A stretch of 64,000 nucleotides of DNA from an uncultured Actinomycetes bacterium (GCA_963731625.1 CAVSWH010000001.1:1608570-1672569); one strand, 5' to 3'. Shown: positions 1,646-63,305, counted from the first letter of the stretch. Program-made: numbers and translations. Notes: a model not told the origin generated them from the sequence alone.

Positions 1646-4219
<2,574 letters not shown>

Positions 4220-4244
4220 CCTGGGCCTACCTCCACATCGGTCA

Positions 4245-4269
4245 AAGTTGACAACGTCTGTATCAACTT
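4245..4269. promoter_or_regulatory. HAIR-like HspR operator upstream of clpB
   Basis: AAGTTGACA-acgtctg-TATCAACTT: inverted repeat with 7-nt spacer, matching the HAIR architecture (CTTGAGT-N7-ACTCAAG). Confidence 0.75.
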
Positions 4270-4298
4270 CGTATTCCGGTGAACGGTCCCGGCCGGCC

Positions 4299-4708: not shown

Positions 4709-5866
4709 CTACACGCCGAGGCGTTCGCGGGGGTTCTCTGGCAACTGCTCGGCGAGCGCGGTGACCGCGGCGCGCTGCTCGTCGGTGAGCGCCGTGGGCA
4801 CGACGACGTCGAAGGTCACGAGCAGGTCGCCCGCGTCGCCCTTGGCCGGGTGGATGCCGCGCCCGCGCACGCGCACCGTCTTGCCCGCCTGGGTGCCCGC
4901 CGGGACCTTCACGGTGACCGGCCCGTCGAGGGTCGGGACCTTCACCTGGGTGCCGAGCGCGGCCTCGGGGAACGTCACCGGCACCGTGACGGTGAGGTTC
5001 GTCTTGCCCTGCCGGGCGAAGATCGGGTGCGGGCCGACGTGGACCCGGACGAAGAGGTCGCCTGGCGGGCCGCCGTTGCGGCCGGCCGCGCCCCGGCCCT
5101 TCACCCGGATGCGCTGCCCGTCGCGGACGCCGGCGGGCATCCGCACCTTCACGTCGCGGCGGCGCCGCTCGACGCCGGTGCCGCGGCACTTCTTGCAGCG
5201 GTGCTCGATCACCTCGCCACGGCCGCCACACGTCGGGCAGACCTCGGAGAACGAGAAGGGCCCCTGGTCGACGGCCACCGCGCCGGTGCCGCCGCAGGTG
5301 GTGCAGGGCTGCGGGAACGTGCCGGGCTCGGCGCCGTTGCCGCCGCACACCGAGCAGGTGGCGTCGGAGGTCACGCCCACGCTCGTCGTCACCCCGTGGA
5401 CGGCGTCGACGAAGTCCAGGTGGAGCTCGGTCTCGAGGTCGGCGCCCCGCACCGGGCCGGTCGGCGCGCGGCCGCGCCGGCGGGTACCCCCGCGAGCGCC
5501 GCCACCGAAGAGGTTGCCGAGCAGGTCGCCGAGGCCGCCGCCGTCGTCGAAGTGGAACGTGGCGTTCCCGAAGCCGGGCCCAAACGGCCCGTTTCCGTCG
5601 CCGAAGCTGCTCGGGCCCGCGCCCGAGGCGACCATCTCGCGGACCTGGTCGTACTCCTTGCGCTTCTCGGCGTCGCCGAGCACCTCGTGCGCCGCCGAGA
5701 TCTCCTTGAAGCGGTCCTCGGCCGCGGTGTCGCCCGCGTTGGCGTCGGGATGGTTCTGCTTGGCGAGACGCCGGTAGGCGCGCTGGATCTCGCGGTCGCT
5801 CGCGCCGGATTCGACGCCGAGCACCGCGTAGTAGTCCTTCTCGAACCAGTCGCGCTGGGGAGCCAT
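4709..5866 (-). CDS. dnaJ: Chaperone DnaJ
   Basis: J-domain with HPD, G/F region, four CxxCxGxG zinc repeats. Confidence 0.98.
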   Translation of the reverse strand: MAPQRDWFEKDYYAVLGVESGASDREIQRAYRRLAKQNHPDANAGDTAAEDRFKEISAAHEVLGDAEKRKEYDQVREMVASGAGPSSFGDGNGPFGPGFGNATFHFDDGGGLGDLLGNLFGGGARGGTRRRGRAPTGPVRGADLETELHLDFVDAVHGVTTSVGVTSDATCSVCGGNGAEPGTFPQPCTTCGGTGAVAVDQGPFSFSEVCPTCGGRGEVIEHRCKKCRGTGVERRRRDVKVRMPAGVRDGQRIRVKGRGAAGRNGGPPGDLFVRVHVGPHPIFARQGKTNLTVTVPVTFPEAALGTQVKVPTLDGPVTVKVPAGTQAGKTVRVRGRGIHPAKGDAGDLLVTFDVVVPTALTDEQRAAVTALAEQLPENPRERLGV

Positions 5867-8946: not shown

Positions 8947-10201
8947 CTACTCGACGGCGTGGGTTCGCGGGGGGCGTGGGTCGGGGAGAGCGAGGCGGGC
9001 GAGGTTGGTCGCGGCGTTGCGGTCACGGTCCACGACGATCCCGCATGCCGGGCAGACGAACGTCGGGGCTGATCCAAGGTGCTGGTGGTAGTGCCCGCAG
9101 GCTGAGCAGGTTTTGGAGGACCCGTACCAGCGGTCGGCGACGACGAGTCGGTTGGCATACCAGTCGGCTTTGTAGGTGAGCTGGCGGCGCAGTTCCCCGA
9201 AGCCCTGATCCGCGACCCGGCCGGCGAGGCGATGGTTGCGCAGCATCCCGGCGACGTGGAGGTCCTCGATCACGAGGGTCTGGTAGCGGGCGACCAGCCC
9301 GCTGGTCAGCTCGTGGAGCTGATGCTCGCGCCGGTGCGCGACTGTGGCGTGCAGACGTGTCAGGCGCGTCGTGGCGCGGCGGCGACCCGACGAGGCGGGC
9401 TTGGTTCTCGCCCAGCCTCGTTGGGCCCGCCGCAACCGGCGCTGGGCCCCATGGAGCGCGTTCACCCCCTCCCACTGCTCGAGAAGCCGACCGCGGGCAT
9501 CCGCGACGCTGGCGAGGCGCCGCACACCCAGGTCCACCCCGACCGGTCCCGGTGCTCGGCCGCGGCGGCGATGCTCCGGGTGGAACGGCGCGGCCCGTCC
9601 GGCGACGCTCAGCCACCAGCGGCCCCGCCGATACGACACCGTCGTGGAGAGCACCTCGAAGCGACCCGCCGCCAGGAGCCGGCGCAGCCGCCGCGTGTCG
9701 TCATGGACCCGCACCCAGCCCAGACACGACACCCGCAGCGCCCGACCCTCGACGCGCAGCTGTTCAGGATGGCGCAACCGGAACCGCGGCGTCGTGCGCT
9801 TGCGGGCCTTAAACACCGGGAACCCCACCCGGGCGCCCCACCGGCGCCCGGCCCGCGACGCCGCCCAGTTCGCCAACCCCGCCGCCAGATCCACCGCGGC
9901 GCACTCGAACACCGCGCTCGGGATCTCCTTTCCCCACGCCAGCTCCCGGCGCCGCCGATAGGCGCTCCGAATCGAGCGCGTACTTCGACCATGCCACCTG
10001 GGTTGTTGGCGCCCCCAACGTGGCGCGCTCCGCGGCGCGGGCATCCAAGCCCGCCTTCACCTCACCCAACAACGCGTTGAAGACGAACCGCGACGCCCCC
10101 GCCCAACGGACCAGCCGCGCCTCCAACACCGGGGACACAACAACAGCGAAACGAAACCCCACCGGCCGCCAACCATTACGACCACCGACCCCAGACACCA
10201 C
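8947..10201 (-). CDS. tnpB: RNA-guided endonuclease TnpB (IS607/IS1535-like), split by one +1 indel near 9972-9977
   Basis: N-part in ORF 9809..10201 (GFRFAV...RWAGASRFVFNALL); remainder in ORF 8947..10044 with RuvC GVDLG, VIEDL, DRDRNAATNL and Zn finger CSACG/CPACG. Confidence 0.9.

Positions 10202-54177: not shown

Positions 54178-58567
<4,390 letters not shown>

Positions 58568-58571
<4 letters not shown>

Positions 58572-59682: not shown

Positions 59683-59692
<10 letters not shown>
58568..59692 (+). CDS. DUF3566 protein with long Ala/Ser/Pro/Arg-rich N-terminal extension
   Basis: KVDLWSVTKLSLCF...FYNIFAELFGGVEITV; canonical position after gyrA. Confidence 0.88.
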
Positions 59693-59756
<64 letters not shown>

Positions 59757-60217
59757 CGACGAGGACTTCACCGTTGGCGCCGGGTTGGGTTCACCGTTGC
59801 GGCTCCGGCGGGGACATCTGGCGCGACATCATCGCCACCGAGCCTTGAGGACCCAGTAGCCGACTGCCGGTTCTACCGGAGGCCTTGGGCCGAAGCTCGT
59901 TACGGGTCGGTTCGTTGCCGGGTGGCGCGACGAAGCCGCCTGAAGGTCTCGCGAGCCCAACCTGCGCGCGGGCCCGTTGTGCGAGTACTGCCCCGCACTT
60001 TGTCGGTGCGAGGTTGGCGCCACCTTCATGGCGGAGCGCAACCAGTAGTCACCAACCGCGTCGTGGCCCGGGCGCAGGAATGATGAATCGTGATCGGCTA
60101 GCCGGGGTCGGAACGGAGCGCTGATCATGTGCGTGGCACGCGTAGAGCTCCGATCGGTCGGTGTTAGCGTTCGGGCGTTCTTGGCCTGCGGGCCAGGCGA
60201 AGGCGGAGGGAGCCCGG

Positions 60218-61738
60218 GTGCGGTCGGTGAGGGGTCCGGTCGCGGCTGGGCTGGTCGGGCTGGTGGTGGTGGCGGGGTCGCTGGTCGCGATCGGGGTGGC
60301 CCCCGCGGGGGCAACATCCCTGGTGCACAACGAGGCGGAGTTCCGGGCCGCGTGGACCAATAACGCCGAGACCGAGATCGACCTGGCCAACGACATCACC
60401 TTCACCACGCCCTGTGCCAACCCCAGCGGCTCCACCGGGGCGGTCCGGGCCACCACGACCCCGTTGACCGTGAACGGCAACGGGCACACGCTCACGCTCT
60501 GCACCAACGCTGGGAACGGCGTGCTCGAACAGGACAGCTCGGGTGCGCTCACGTTCCAGAACGTCACCGTCACCGGTGGCACCGCGACGACCTCCCCCGG
60601 CATCGGGGGTGCGATCTTCACTGGCGGTGTGGTGACGGTGACGAACTCGACGTTCACCAACAACACTGCCGACGGCATCGGGGGCGGTGCGATCTTCGCT
60701 GACGGTGCAGCGGTGACGGTGACGAACTCGACGTTCACCGGCAACACTGCCCCCGGCGACGCCGGGGGTGCGGTCTTCGCTTTTGGTGTGGTGACGGTGA
60801 CGAACTCGACGTTCACCAACAACACCGCCGCCGGCAGCGGTGCGATCTTCGACGAGGGTGGTGCCGTGACGGTGACGAACTCGACGTTCACCGGCAACAC
60901 CGCCCCCGGCGGCACCGGGGGCGCGATCGTGACTGGCGGTGTGGTGACGGTGACGAACTCGACGTTCGCCAACAACACTGCATCCAGCGGCGGGGGTGCG
61001 ATCGGCACCGGTAATGCGGTCATGGTGACGAACTCGACGTTCACCGGCAACGCCGCATCCAGCGGCGACGGGGGTGCGATCACTGGCGCAGCGGTGACGG
61101 TGACGAACTCGACGTTCACCGGCAACGCCGCATCCAGCGGCGACGGGGGTGCGATCGGCACCGCCTTTCCGGTCACGGTGACGAACTCGACGTTCACCAA
61201 CAACACCGCGAGCACCGGGGGTGCGGTCTTCGCCAGCAGTGCGCTGAAGGTCGCATATTCGACGTTGACCGGGAACGTCGCCCCAACCGGAAGCGCAGTG
61301 GCGTCAGATACTTCGATCACGTTGTTTGGCTCGGTGTTCGTGAAGCCCGCGGGGACGGGGCCCCTGTGCGCTGGAACGAGCAACTCGTTGGGGTACAACT
61401 ACGCGAACGAGACCCTGAACACCTGCAACCTGATCGCGACGGGGGATAGCAGCCTCGACGCGAACGACCCGCTGCTCGGTGCGCTGGCCAGCAACGGTGG
61501 GCCCACCCAGACCCAGCTGCCCCAAGACGGGCCCAGCCCACTGATCGACGCGATCCCCAACGCGCACTGCGGGGACGGCAACACCCTCGCCGGGTTCACG
61601 ATCACGACCGACCAGCGCGGCCTGCCCCGCCCCGACACGGCCAGCCCCAACTGCGACATCGGCGCCGTGGAGGTGCAGCCACCTGCGGCGGCGACCACCA
61701 CGACAACGCCTGGCCTCACCGCCGCGTTCACCGGGTAG
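60218..61738 (+). CDS. Secreted beta-helix (Pmp/adhesin-like) protein with choice-of-anchor-Q-type C-domain, ending AAFTG-stop
   Basis: RBS GGAGG then GTG 60218; signal ...GVAPAGA; eight GA(I/V)...VTVTNSTFTxN repeats; DPLLGALASNGGPTQT...DQRGLPRP...CDIGAVEV; tail TTTTPGLTAAFTG. Confidence 0.88.
   Translation: MRSVRGPVAAGLVGLVVVAGSLVAIGVAPAGATSLVHNEAEFRAAWTNNAETEIDLANDITFTTPCANPSGSTGAVRATTTPLTVNGNGHTLTLCTNAGNGVLEQDSSGALTFQNVTVTGGTATTSPGIGGAIFTGGVVTVTNSTFTNNTADGIGGGAIFADGAAVTVTNSTFTGNTAPGDAGGAVFAFGVVTVTNSTFTNNTAAGSGAIFDEGGAVTVTNSTFTGNTAPGGTGGAIVTGGVVTVTNSTFANNTASSGGGAIGTGNAVMVTNSTFTGNAASSGDGGAITGAAVTVTNSTFTGNAASSGDGGAIGTAFPVTVTNSTFTNNTASTGGAVFASSALKVAYSTLTGNVAPTGSAVASDTSITLFGSVFVKPAGTGPLCAGTSNSLGYNYANETLNTCNLIATGDSSLDANDPLLGALASNGGPTQTQLPQDGPSPLIDAIPNAHCGDGNTLAGFTITTDQRGLPRPDTASPNCDIGAVEVQPPAAATTTTTPGLTAAFTG
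60608..61215 (+). repeat. Eight intragenic ~70-80 bp repeats (core GTGACGAACTCGACGTTC)
   Basis: Near-identical DNA cores encode VTNSTF in each beta-helix coil. Confidence 0.9.
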
Positions 61739-61743
61739 CGGCG

Positions 61744-61759
61744 CCGTTCGGGCGAACGG
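61744..61759 (+). terminator. Hairpin after beta-helix gene
   Basis: CCGTTCG-gg-CGAACGG, 5 nt after stop; no U-tract. Confidence 0.45.
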
Positions 61760-61764
61760 GGCCG

Positions 61765-61795
61765 TGTAGAAATCGGTCGCTGAGGGTGTAGATCC
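61765..61795 (+). repeat. 31-bp module copy 1
   Basis: TGTAGAAATCGGTCGCTGAGGGTGTAGATCC. Confidence 0.9.
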
Positions 61796-61873
61796 ATGCC
61801 CCGACCATGTGGCTCCGCCTGCGCCGGCAAGGGCGTAGCGTCCTGCCGTTCGGTCGAGGCGGAGGAGACGCCG

Positions 61874-62947
61874 GTGCGGTTGCGCATCGCTAGTTTCGGT
61901 CTTGGTGCGGTCGCGACCGCGCTGTTCGGCGTCGTGGCGTTGGCAGGTTCGGGCCCAGCGGGGGCGGCGTCGACGACGCTGTACTCCTCCCTCACCGGGT
62001 TTACCGGGTTTGTGCCGAGCGCGGCGACGGTGCCTGCGGGGATCTGTTTCGTGACGATCGCCGCTGCGGGTGGGCAGGGAGGGACCACGAGTGTCGCCGG
62101 TGGCGCCGGCGCGTCGGTCGCGGCGCGTGTCGCTGCCGCGCCGGGGAGCGTCTTGGCCGTGCTCGTCGCTGGCGCGGGCGGCCTTGTAGATGGCGGCACC
62201 GGTGGCGGGGGCGGGGCTGGGGGCGGGGAAGGCGAGGGGGGTGGTGGGGCATCGGCTGCGAGCTCGAATGGTGTGCCGCTGGTCGTTGCCGGGGGCGGCG
62301 GTGGCGCGAGCAACGGCGTAGGCGGCGCGGGTGGACCCATTGCGGGGAACGCGAGTCCGGGCGGCGGCGGTGATCCCGGCGGCGGCGGGACCGGCGCCGG
62401 GGTGAGCGGCGCGGGTGGGTTCCGCGGCGGCACGGGTGGGACGGTGACCACGACCGGGGCCGCGACCGGGGCCGTCGGCGGCAGCGGTGGCAACGGTGAC
62501 GGCAACGCAGGTGGTGGCGGCGGAGCGGGGACCTTCACGTCGGCGCCTGGAGCGAACGGCGGCGCGGGCGGCGCGGGATCGGGCGCGGGCGGAACCGGCA
62601 GTGCCGGCAGCGGAAAGGGCGGTGCGGGCGCCGCGCCCGGCGGCACCGGCGGGAGCTCCAGCGATCAAGGCGGCGGCGGTGGTGGCGGCGCCCCCGGCGT
62701 GGGCGGTGGTGGTGGTGGTGTCGATGGTGGCGGGGGCGCAGGCTACGCGGGCGGCGGCGGAGGGGGCGGCGCAGGTTCGGGAGGAGGCGGGGGATCGTCG
62801 TTCGCCGCGCCCGGCGCGACCGGGATCCAGAACCTCGGACCCAACACCGGAGACGGCAGCGTCGCGATCACCTACGACCCGAGCACCGACGCCTGCCCGG
62901 TTGTCGCGCCGGCCGCGGTCGCCCCGACGGCTGCGTTCACCGGGTAG
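61874..62947 (+). CDS. Secreted glycine-rich protein ending AAFTG-stop
   Basis: RBS GGAGG then GTG 61874; signal ...GSGPAGA; ATVPAGICFVTIAAAGGQGG glycine-rich domain; GDGSVAITY; tail PVVAPAAVAPTAAFTG. Confidence 0.87.
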   Translation: MRLRIASFGLGAVATALFGVVALAGSGPAGAASTTLYSSLTGFTGFVPSAATVPAGICFVTIAAAGGQGGTTSVAGGAGASVAARVAAAPGSVLAVLVAGAGGLVDGGTGGGGGAGGGEGEGGGGASAASSNGVPLVVAGGGGGASNGVGGAGGPIAGNASPGGGGDPGGGGTGAGVSGAGGFRGGTGGTVTTTGAATGAVGGSGGNGDGNAGGGGGAGTFTSAPGANGGAGGAGSGAGGTGSAGSGKGGAGAAPGGTGGSSSDQGGGGGGGAPGVGGGGGGVDGGGGAGYAGGGGGGGAGSGGGGGSSFAAPGATGIQNLGPNTGDGSVAITYDPSTDACPVVAPAAVAPTAAFTG

Positions 62948-62950
62948 CGG

Positions 62951-62964
62951 CGCGGTTCACCGCG
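62951..62964 (+). terminator. Hairpin after glycine-rich gene
   Basis: CGCGG-ttca-CCGCG, 3 nt after stop; no U-tract. Confidence 0.4.
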
Positions 62965-62975
62965 AGCGGGACCCT

Positions 62976-63006
62976 TGTAGAAATCGGCCGCGGAGCGTGT
63001 AGATCC
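62976..63006 (+). repeat. 31-bp module copy 2
   Basis: TGTAGAAATCGGCCGCGGAGCGTGTAGATCC, 28/31 identical to copy 1. Confidence 0.9.
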
Positions 63007-63072
63007 GTGGTCCACGCATCTGCACGTCACCTGTGCCAGTAGGGCTGTCCGCAACGGTGAAGTCCTCACGAC

Positions 63073-63103
63073 GAGAGAAATCGGTCGCTTAGGGTGTAGA
63101 TCC
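63073..63103 (+). repeat. 31-bp module copy 3
   Basis: GAGAGAAATCGGTCGCTTAGGGTGTAGATCC, 27/31 identical to copy 1. Confidence 0.88.
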
Positions 63104-63167
63104 GTGGCTCACCCATGCGGTTCCACCCGCGCTTGCCAGTGCTGCCGGCAACGATGAAGCCTTCACG

Positions 63168-63305
63168 ATGAGAAACGCTCGTCGCATCGCCCTGGTCGTG
63201 CTCTGCGCGCTCCTCGCCGGCATCGTCGTGCGCCTGCGCGGTAAGGGCAGCGTCCCGCCCACCAACGGCGGCTGGCGGGAGCTCGAGGGCCCCGACTTCC
63301 GGTGA
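63168..63305 (+). CDS. 45-aa single-TM small protein
   Basis: Below track cutoff. MRNARRIALVVLCALLAGIVVRLRGKGSVPPTNGGWRELEGPDFR; stop overlaps the next GTG (GTGA). Confidence 0.7.
   Translation: MRNARRIALVVLCALLAGIVVRLRGKGSVPPTNGGWRELEGPDFR

Follow-up and report, generated by a model that had tools for sequence, protein, structure and literature searches.

Apparent gene-tail modules next to a tRNA-Ile gene as probable ends of stacked, transposase-less elements in an uncultured Acidimicrobiia-type actinobacterium

In a stretch of 64,000 nucleotides (nt) from an uncultured Actinomycetes bacterium (GCA_963731625.1 CAVSWH010000001.1:1608570-1672569; hereafter the window), which has a G+C content of 72% and comes from an Acidimicrobiia-type actinobacterium, a module with a 31-nt core occurs three times close to two genes for secreted proteins that end in the residues FTG (gene 1 and gene 2). 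These modules probably belong to a small family of non-autonomous elements, resembling either MITEs (miniature transposable elements with inverted repeats) and mobile insertion cassettes (MICs) or att-flanked cis-mobilizable elements (CIMEs), which have piled up at a hot spot between a tRNA-Ile gene and a 45-codon open reading frame (ORF). This reading is carried by the boundaries of the elements, their empty sites in relatives, the repeats (inverted as well as direct), the lack of a transposase, and the fact that an element is identical in diverged hosts. As genomic islets go, the locus is fairly ordinary and adds one more case to a familiar type; it holds no general tail module for cargo genes. 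For the annotation, this means that an apparent gene-tail module is replaced by a map of a tRNA-adjacent hot spot, in which a cargo element of 3.3 kb, a relic end inside it, and an older element of miniature size have defined ends and empty sites. To our knowledge, little is known about the mobile DNA of uncultured Acidimicrobiia, and the 16-bp ends together with the 31-nt core provide sequence handles for finding the enzyme that moves the elements.

The repeats described in the initial annotation, namely the module copies, a 21-mer shared by both genes, homology past the 31-mer, and the tandem spacing of copies 2 and 3 (97 bp from start to start), are all present. The 31-nt pattern TGTAGAAATCGGTCGCNNAGNGTGTAGATCC matches at 61765, 62976, and 63073 with 0, 1, and 3 mismatches, respectively; these three copies in the window stand against no match in 100 shuffles of the sequence. 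Homology extends for ~40-65 nt beyond the 31-mer, and over 67 nt copies 3 and 2 are 79% and 61% identical to copy 1, respectively; as the window most likely contains at least one assembly indel error, single-base gaps between the copies should not be over-read. The 21-mer GCGTTCACCGGGTAGCGGCGC spans the stop codon of both genes in identical form, and within the 64 kb the sequence TTCACCGGGTAG is found at 61727 and 62936 only, that is, at the two stop codons. The statement that TGTAGA occurs twice in the 31-mer is correct for copies 1 and 2, the only ones with TGTAGA-N16-TGTAGA, but not for copy 3, which starts with GAGAGA and retains the second TGTAGA, as do the other two.

The distribution of the module was examined by scanning the core query GAAATCGGNCGCNNNNNGTGTAGATCC against 185,579 species-representative genomes, the metagenomes of the Joint Genome Institute (JGI), and IMG/VR. 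The species genomes gave a single match (locus L002, an Acidimicrobiia metagenome-assembled genome), the metagenomes gave two (L003 and L004), and IMG/VR gave none. Every match, including those in the window, lies between tRNA-Ile and the 45-codon ORF; the proposal that the core would follow FTG genes elsewhere thus found no support in these three collections. In L002 and L003, whose flanking genes are 94-97% identical to those of the window, tRNA-Ile is followed by ACGAC, GATCGG, a short hairpin, one module, and the ATG of the 45-codon ORF, with neither gene 1 nor gene 2. Their empty sites read CCCCACGAC directly abutting GATCGG. Since the cargo genes are missing there, 59761-63072 is an insertion in the window's lineage, and since the module is present there alone, it can exist without an FTG gene. 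The next closest relative after these two is L008 (DUF3566 domain 93% identical), which has no module: its sequence TAGCCCCACG-ATG-ACA-AAC (that is, AGCCCCACG-ATG) leaves 3 nt between the tRNA and the first codon of the small ORF. The module itself is therefore inserted DNA as well, and the short distance to the ATG implies a tRNA-mRNA co-transcript in L008. Compared with L008, the spacer of L003 amounts to an insertion of ~113 bp between CCCCACGA(C) and CCTCACGA(T). In two further relatives, the spacer between tRNA-Ile and the ORF is unrelated and measures 40 nt (L010) and 245 nt (L009).

The features of the locus are given below by position in the window.

59683..59757, plus strand: tRNA-Ile(GAT), the landmark of the insertion hot spot (ARAGORN; Rfam tRNA, 76 bits).
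59756..59760, no strand: left ACGAC direct repeat, either a target duplication or a crossover core, immediately next to the large element, read from the sequence.
59761..59776, plus strand: left terminal inverted repeat GAGGACTTCACCGTTG of the 3.3-kb element, a 16/16 inverted match to 63052-63067.
59777..60155, no strand: element-specific non-coding left part, without homology to other gene 1 loci.
59790..59802, plus strand: second partial inverted copy of the right end, TTCACCGTTGCGG, the reverse complement of CCGCAACGGTGAA (63049-63061).
60156..61738, plus strand: cargo gene 1 unit including a -10-like box TGTTAGCGT (60162-60170) and a ribosome-binding site (RBS); coding sequence 60218-61738.
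61724..61744, plus strand: 21-mer across the gene 1 stop codon, identical to 62933-62953.
61740..61763, plus strand: GC-rich hairpin 3' of gene 1, GGCGCCGTTC-GGGC-GAACGGGGCC, terminator-like without a T tract and not picked up by the T-tract terminator scan.
61765..61834, plus strand: module copy 1, the 31-nt core and ~40 nt, cut off at GCAAGGGC (61834) and without the right inverted repeat.
61836..62947, plus strand: cargo gene 2 unit with its own -10-like TAGCGT and RBS; coding sequence 61874-62947.
62933..62953, plus strand: 21-mer across the gene 2 stop codon.
62951..62964, plus strand: hairpin 3' of gene 2, CGCGG-TTCA-CCGCG, read from the sequence.
62976..63067, plus strand: module copy 2, which forms the large element's right end in full length; its core spans 62976-63006, and its right inverted repeat, CAACGGTGAAGTCCTC, spans 63052-63067.
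63068..63072, no strand: right ACGAC direct repeat, read from the sequence.
63073..63167, plus strand: module copy 3, the probable left-truncated remnant of an older small element, with core 63073-63103 and degenerate inverted repeat CAACGATGAAGCCTTC at 63149-63164.
63168..63305, plus strand: conserved 45-codon ORF, a predicted small membrane protein; the hot spot ends on its right side at the 5' edge of this ORF.

The large unit (59761-63067) measures 3,307 bp and is bounded by the perfect 16-bp inverted repeat GAGGACTTCACCGTTG/CAACGGTGAAGTCCTC, with the left arm read on the minus strand, and flanked on both sides by ACGAC. Both junctions and the empty site have CACGACGA in common, a repeat too short to be told apart from a target duplication. 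No transposase or recombinase domain was detected in the unit by Pfam, NCBIfam, and ORF checks, and its only credible genes are the two for secreted proteins. In its non-coding left part (59777..60155), no ORF gave a Pfam match and no similarity to the right end was seen beyond the inverted repeat; an inverted copy of the core or of other right-end sequence was not found at the left end above the shuffle background, and the 64-kb window contains no further end copies. Left ends resembling GAGGACTTCACCGTTG adjoin tRNA-Ile also in L004 and L009, with 2 mismatches each. In L009, GAGAGCACTTCACCGTTT, which stands 23 nt past tRNA-Ile, resembles the left inverted repeat of the window's element and lies in the loop of a strong local hairpin in the predicted fold.

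An indication of movement comes from L004. There, the tail end of gene 2 and module copy 2 match 62948-63072 of the window at 125/125 nt, while the flanks are 94% identical. As ~9 differences would be expected in 147 nt at 6% divergence and copy 2 is identical, the element reached both lineages recently. The right junction of L004 reads GTCCTC-ACGAC-GATCG, the latter part being the flank of the empty site (13/14 nt agree with the empty site by manual comparison). Beyond this junction follow ACGAC, a complete 198-bp element (158-355), and then ACGAT and the ORF. This small element consists of a left end GAGGGCTTCACCGGTG, three GGCTTCACSG repeats at the position equivalent to TTCACCGTTGCGG in the window, a hairpin, the module, and a right end CAAGGGTGAAACCCTC, its ends (158-173 and 340-355) being inverted repeats at 13/16 positions. 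In the window, copy 3 likewise ends in ACGAT, which overlaps the ATG of the small ORF; its identity to the L002, L003, and L004 modules is 83%, compared with 94-95% in the adjoining genes. Copy 1 is 86% identical to the single modules of L003 and L004, and copy 2 is 75% identical to those of L002 and L003. Across L008, L002/L003, L004, and the window, presence and absence of the units are delimited by precise junctions. The suggestions that copy 3, lying outside the inverted repeats, is the relic of an earlier insertion and that the modules mark inserted DNA units stacked at one site are supported by the complete small element in L004 and the empty site in L008.

These observations can be combined into a model of stacked elements. 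Each element would have a left end GAGGRCTTCACCGKTG followed by TTCACCG-type repeats, and a right end made up of a short hairpin, the invariant 31-nt core, ~50 variable nt, and the inverted repeat CAAsGGTGAAryCCTC, with ACGAC/ACGAT direct repeats flanking the whole. An old, empty element of ~200 bp would first have settled beside the ORF, copy 3 being its remnant after deletion of the left half; its 3.3-kb relative (59761-63067) would later have inserted at the tRNA-side ACGAC, with copy 2 as its right end and two self-promoted genes for secreted xFTG-COOH proteins as its cargo. Copy 1 would be a truncated right end inside the large element, behind gene 1, and two histories may account for it: either two tandem single-gene elements were fused by a deletion that joined the right end of the first to the left part of the second, or a gene pair was captured and a conversion tract then started from the TTCACCGG tail that the genes share. 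That the 21-mer is the same at both stop codons would be a sign of such a fusion or conversion event. Copy 1 is closer to the L003-type module than copy 2 is, yet it is preceded by the 21-mer of copy 2. The TTCACCG heptamer is also seen at 59767, 59790, 61727, 62936, 62956, and 63055 (minus strand) of the window. These positions fall in the left-end repeats, in the FTG-coding tails of the two genes, in the hairpin that follows gene 2, and, in inverted orientation, in the right end; the heptamer further occurs in the STFTGN repeats of gene 1.

Mobilization would occur in trans, for which two mechanisms can be envisaged. One is a DDE transposase, as for MITEs and MICs. The other is a site-specific recombinase acting, as for CIMEs, on a site composed of inverted repeat, CACGACG, and inverted repeat; the joined ends would then read CAACGGTGAAGTCCT-CACGACG-AGGACTTCACCGTTG, with two 15-nt inverted arms and a 7-nt spacer. 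Two inverted arms around a 7-nt spacer are the layout of a tyrosine-recombinase core site. The restriction of all known copies to a single site favors the recombinase, and the short direct repeat with perfect inverted repeats fits a transposase equally well.

FTG genes also occur at four other loci, where they are arranged as follows.

L001: gene 1, then gene 2; orthologs 64% identical in another context, with no module after them.
L005: gene 1 alone, joined to the downstream flank of gene 2 of L001; no module.
L006: gene 2, a 165-codon ORF, and gene 1; no module.
L007: gene 2, then gene 1; no module.

None of the 7 FTG gene ends at these loci, which use TAG, TGA, or TAA as stop codon, is followed by the 31-mer, and the module is therefore not part of the FTG genes. 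When L001 is compared with the window, similarity breaks off at each stop codon and resumes at the TAGCGT -10-like box (61836) before gene 2; the homology of gene 1 to L001, L005, L006, and L007 begins at 60156-60177 and ends at the stop codon. The -10 and RBS regions of both cargo genes are conserved in other contexts. A candidate fourth, degenerate module upstream of gene 1 (60143-60175) was discarded, as the sequence there is the promoter region of gene 1 itself and is conserved in L001, L005, and L006. The invariant gene order in relatives that was associated with a simple old tandem duplication is not what these loci show, since the order varies among them. L007 contains another repeat of ~200 bp (2256-2461 and 4080-4278; 155/211 aligned positions identical, with GGTCGAAATCCGGAACGC) on both sides of its gene 2 homolog, and FTG genes may often sit between repeated intergenic sequences.

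The ends of the FTG genes have a history of their own. In L001, the stop regions of the two genes differ (GGC TGA and GGG TAG), and because the ortholog of gene 1 ends in GGC TGA there, the identity of the window's 21-mer arose within the window's lineage. In L007, the two FTG genes are near-identical to each other over their last ~45 coding nt (5598-5645 and 3630-3677) and differ there from those of the window. Within each genome, the two FTG genes resemble each other more closely over the last 20-45 coding nt than orthologs from different genomes do, a pattern that points to homogenization of the tails within each genome, presumably by concerted evolution or gene conversion. In L005, gene 1 runs straight into the flank that lies downstream of gene 2 in L001, an arrangement that a deletion of gene 2 through recombination between the tails would produce.

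Within the 31-nt core, which is not palindromic, at least 22 positions are invariant across the five distinct copies. The blocks GAAATCGGnCGC and GTGTAGATCC are unchanged in all of them, and as the surroundings are only 60-85% identical, the core likely has some sequence-specific function. The first hexamer is variable, reading TGTGGA in L002 and L003 and TGCAGA in L004, besides GAGAGA in copy 3 of the window. The core may be of use to the element itself or to the ORF downstream of it, for instance by binding a protein or by acting as an outward promoter. An Rfam search at E-values up to 10 returned only the tRNA and nothing over the modules, and scans for sigma-70 promoters and T-tract terminators found nothing in them. 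At the right end, TAGGGT, which fits the actinobacterial TAnnnT pattern of -10 boxes, is intact only where a copy stands directly before the small ORF (copy 3 of the window and the corresponding modules in L002, L003, and L004); copies 1 and 2 have GAGGGT or GAGCGT at the same position. The hint is weak, and one might guess from it that the right end acts as an outward promoter for an ORF that the insertion has cut off from the tRNA transcript. Manual comparison of the core with consensus sequences for a pair of DnaA boxes, an extracytoplasmic function (ECF) or SigB-type promoter, or an end of an IS200/IS605 insertion sequence (IS) was unconvincing.

Important to note here is that several points weigh against reading the units as mobile elements. 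No cognate transposase or integrase was found in the window ORFs checked or in the loci fetched, the only recombinase or transposase gene among 20 window ORFs being an unrelated TnpB gene (8947-10044). All known members of the family come from a single locus, an unusual situation for MITEs; nothing at the left end corresponds to the core in inverted orientation; and the simple model leaves the extra GATCG between the two ACGAC copies of L004 unexplained. Moreover, the right inverted repeat and its flank resemble the start of the small ORF, and the left-arm-like GAGAGCACTTCACCGTTT of L009 is complementary to that start at 13/18 positions (3641-3666 and 3868-3890 of L009; manual comparison), such that the inverted repeats could be native leader sequence and not transposon ends. 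The module and the inverted arms would then make up a regulatory leader (a structured RNA or a promoter) whose left arm pairs near the ORF start; the module would not be mobile, and its extra copies would stem from local duplication when an unrelated island landed inside. The confinement of all known copies to one locus, the intact TAGGGT of the ORF-preceding copies, and the pairing of the arms in the minimum-energy fold of the small element of L004 agree with such a leader. However, single-strand folds of this element and of the L009 spacer are no more stable than shuffled sequences (z = -0.10 and -1.10, respectively), the left arm of L009 folds into its local hairpin instead, and neither an Rfam nor a sigma-70-type promoter match was obtained. 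The leader would also be dispensable, as L008 does without a spacer and L010 has its unrelated 40-nt one; the left arm is absent in L002 and L003; and a leader would explain neither the ACGAC repeats nor the precision of the junctions at the empty sites, nor why copy 2 is 100% identical between hosts that are 6% apart. We consider a native leader unlikely on these grounds.

Other interpretations start from the cargo genes. According to the initial annotation, the module is a portable 3' tail, terminator, and promoter, or the site of an integron-like cassette array, onto which FTG genes are shuffled and which includes empty slots. It is true that each cargo gene is followed by the 21-mer, a hairpin, and the module, that the distance from the stop codon (or the tRNA-side insertion point) to the core is similar (~27-31 nt), that FTG genes change order and neighbors between genomes, and that the two genes of a genome show concerted evolution of their tails. 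The model is nevertheless very improbable: the seven FTG ends at four other loci have no module, L002 and L003 have a module and no FTG gene, and the core occurs nowhere else in the three large collections. Furthermore, both genes keep their own conserved -10 box and RBS and are hence no promoterless cassettes, no integrase was found nearby, and the module is no attC-like imperfect palindrome, so that neither a tail traveling with FTG genes nor an integron-type architecture is retained. Still less credible is the idea that the TGTAGA pair, 22 bp apart, forms an activator or response-regulator box for the downstream genes. The direct repeat with a spacing of two helical turns in copies 1 and 2 and the conservation of the core would suit such a box, but the first half of the pair is not conserved among the copies, the invariant blocks are GAAATCGGnCGC and GTGTAGATCC and not the two hexamers, and neither the region upstream of gene 1 nor any other FTG-gene locus has the box. 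A further idea takes the core and the inverted repeat/ACGAC as the recognition site of a site-specific system that is encoded elsewhere in the genome and stacks self-promoted genes for xFTG-tailed surface proteins at the junction of tRNA-Ile and the small ORF; such an integron-like accretion platform in Acidimicrobiia, without IntI or attC, appears quite unlikely.

Turning to the cargo, the gene 1 protein combines nine Pmp-type repeats with a signal peptide and a choice-of-anchor Q domain and ends in ...TAAFTG; it matches Chlam_PMP and Pectate_lyase_5 in Pfam and choice_anch_Q in NCBIfam (2.3e-14). The gene 2 protein is secreted and glycine-rich and ends in ...PTAAFTG, with a passenger part unrelated to that of gene 1 and no match in Pfam or NCBIfam. 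Its homologs have TLYSS...ICFVT...ITYDPxTDxC in common, and an ortholog adjoins gene 1 in L001; the search for gene 2 homologs was hampered by low complexity and missed even this ortholog. The G+C content at third codon positions (GC3) is 0.88 in gene 1 and 0.78 in gene 2, compared with 0.92-0.97 in neighboring core genes, and these lower values agree with mobility of the unit. Among the 120 best homologs of gene 1 (P0001-P0120), 78 end in FTG, which makes the tail widespread, and as gene 2 joins this terminus to a glycine-rich passenger, the view that different passenger domains share a C-terminal tail is supported. The consensus ahead of FTG is approximately P-V-V-[VLI]-T-P-[RATSK], preceded by a P/A-rich linker. 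TAG, TGA, and TAA are used alike by the homologs, and the stop after FTG therefore marks the real protein end. Readthrough of TAG or a frameshift into a hidden membrane anchor was considered and rejected, given the three stop codons among homologs and the lack of a hydrophobic segment in any frame past either stop. No NCBIfam or Pfam model covers the xFTG tail, no membrane-spanning segment follows it, and nothing relevant was found in the literature on an FTG tail or on choice-of-anchor sorting. Judging from the sequences, the xFTG-COOH tail may be an undescribed sorting or anchoring signal in Acidimicrobiia and may be a more interesting lead than the module; if it sorts or anchors proteins without a membrane-spanning segment, it would represent a new kind of signal.

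The insertion site is preceded by gyrB, gyrA, a gene for a DUF3566 protein, and tRNA-Ile(GAT), an order also found in L002, L003, L008, L009, and L010. The 45-codon ORF always follows tRNA-Ile and overlaps the start of a gene for an NAD-binding dehydrogenase-like protein; the corresponding regions are L008 5459-5540, L009 3552-3880, and L010 3569-3690. Its N-terminus varies, reading MRNARRIALVVLC in the window and MTNFRRIALVVLC in L008, and its C-terminus in the window is GGWRELEGPDFR. In L002, gyrA is one ORF of 844 codons; compared with it, the gyrA of the window has a 1-nt insertion at ~56383 that splits the gene into the overlapping ORFs 56036-56797 and 56391-58571; as the gene is essential, this is most likely an assembly indel error. 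A similarly fragmented gyrA is seen in L008 and L010, assemblies of the same series in the European Nucleotide Archive (ENA). The TnpB-type gene of the window (8947-10044, minus strand) has OrfB_IS605 and Cas12f1-like TNB domains and a slightly low GC3 of 0.85. A second TnpB-type gene lies in L008 (8581-9567, minus strand), ~3 kb downstream of the same tRNA-Ile locus, and no link to the elements was found.

The likeness of the locus to known systems can finally be considered. As in an integron cassette array, compact single-gene units, each followed by a repeated site of ~100 bp, stand head to tail. In contrast to integrons, no IntI or attI was found, the neighbors being gyrA, the DUF3566 gene, tRNA-Ile, the small ORF, and the dehydrogenase-like gene, with no integrase domain in the scanned ORFs; the modules share a 31-nt non-palindromic core and not just 7-nt core sites, they fold no better than shuffled sequences, and the cargo genes have their own promoters. 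MITEs and MICs are IS-derived, transposase-less elements bounded by inverted repeats, some of them with passenger genes (PMC3129680), and a qnrS2 MIC adjoining a MITE has been described (PMC5444012). The elements of the window and its relatives are similar in their terminal inverted repeats (16/16 in the large and 13/16 in the small element), their ACGAC flanks with empty sites in L002 and L003 (large) and in L008 (small), the lack of a transposase inside, and the presence of an empty form of ~200 bp and a 3.3-kb cargo form of one family. Unlike MITEs and MICs, all known copies occupy a single chromosomal site and are not dispersed, a parent IS with the same ends is not known, and the right end has a long asymmetric conserved segment, the 31-nt core, with none at the left end. 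CIMEs are decayed, att-flanked elements that are stacked beside a tRNA gene by accretion (PMC5704250), and tandem ssrA islands are found in Dehalococcoides (PMC3146451). Compared with these, the shared core is only 5-8 bp, the elements of 0.2 and 3.3 kb are far below the usual size of islands, no integrase-bearing relative was seen at this site in the loci fetched, and the target lies between the tRNA and the start codon of the next ORF and not inside the tRNA 3' end. The resemblance, on the other hand, extends to the fixed site immediately 3' of a tRNA gene, the tandem stacking, the ends that are kept without an integrase, the apparent precise absence in a close relative, and the joined ends, in which two inverted repeats enclose a 7-nt CACGACG and resemble a tyrosine-recombinase core site.

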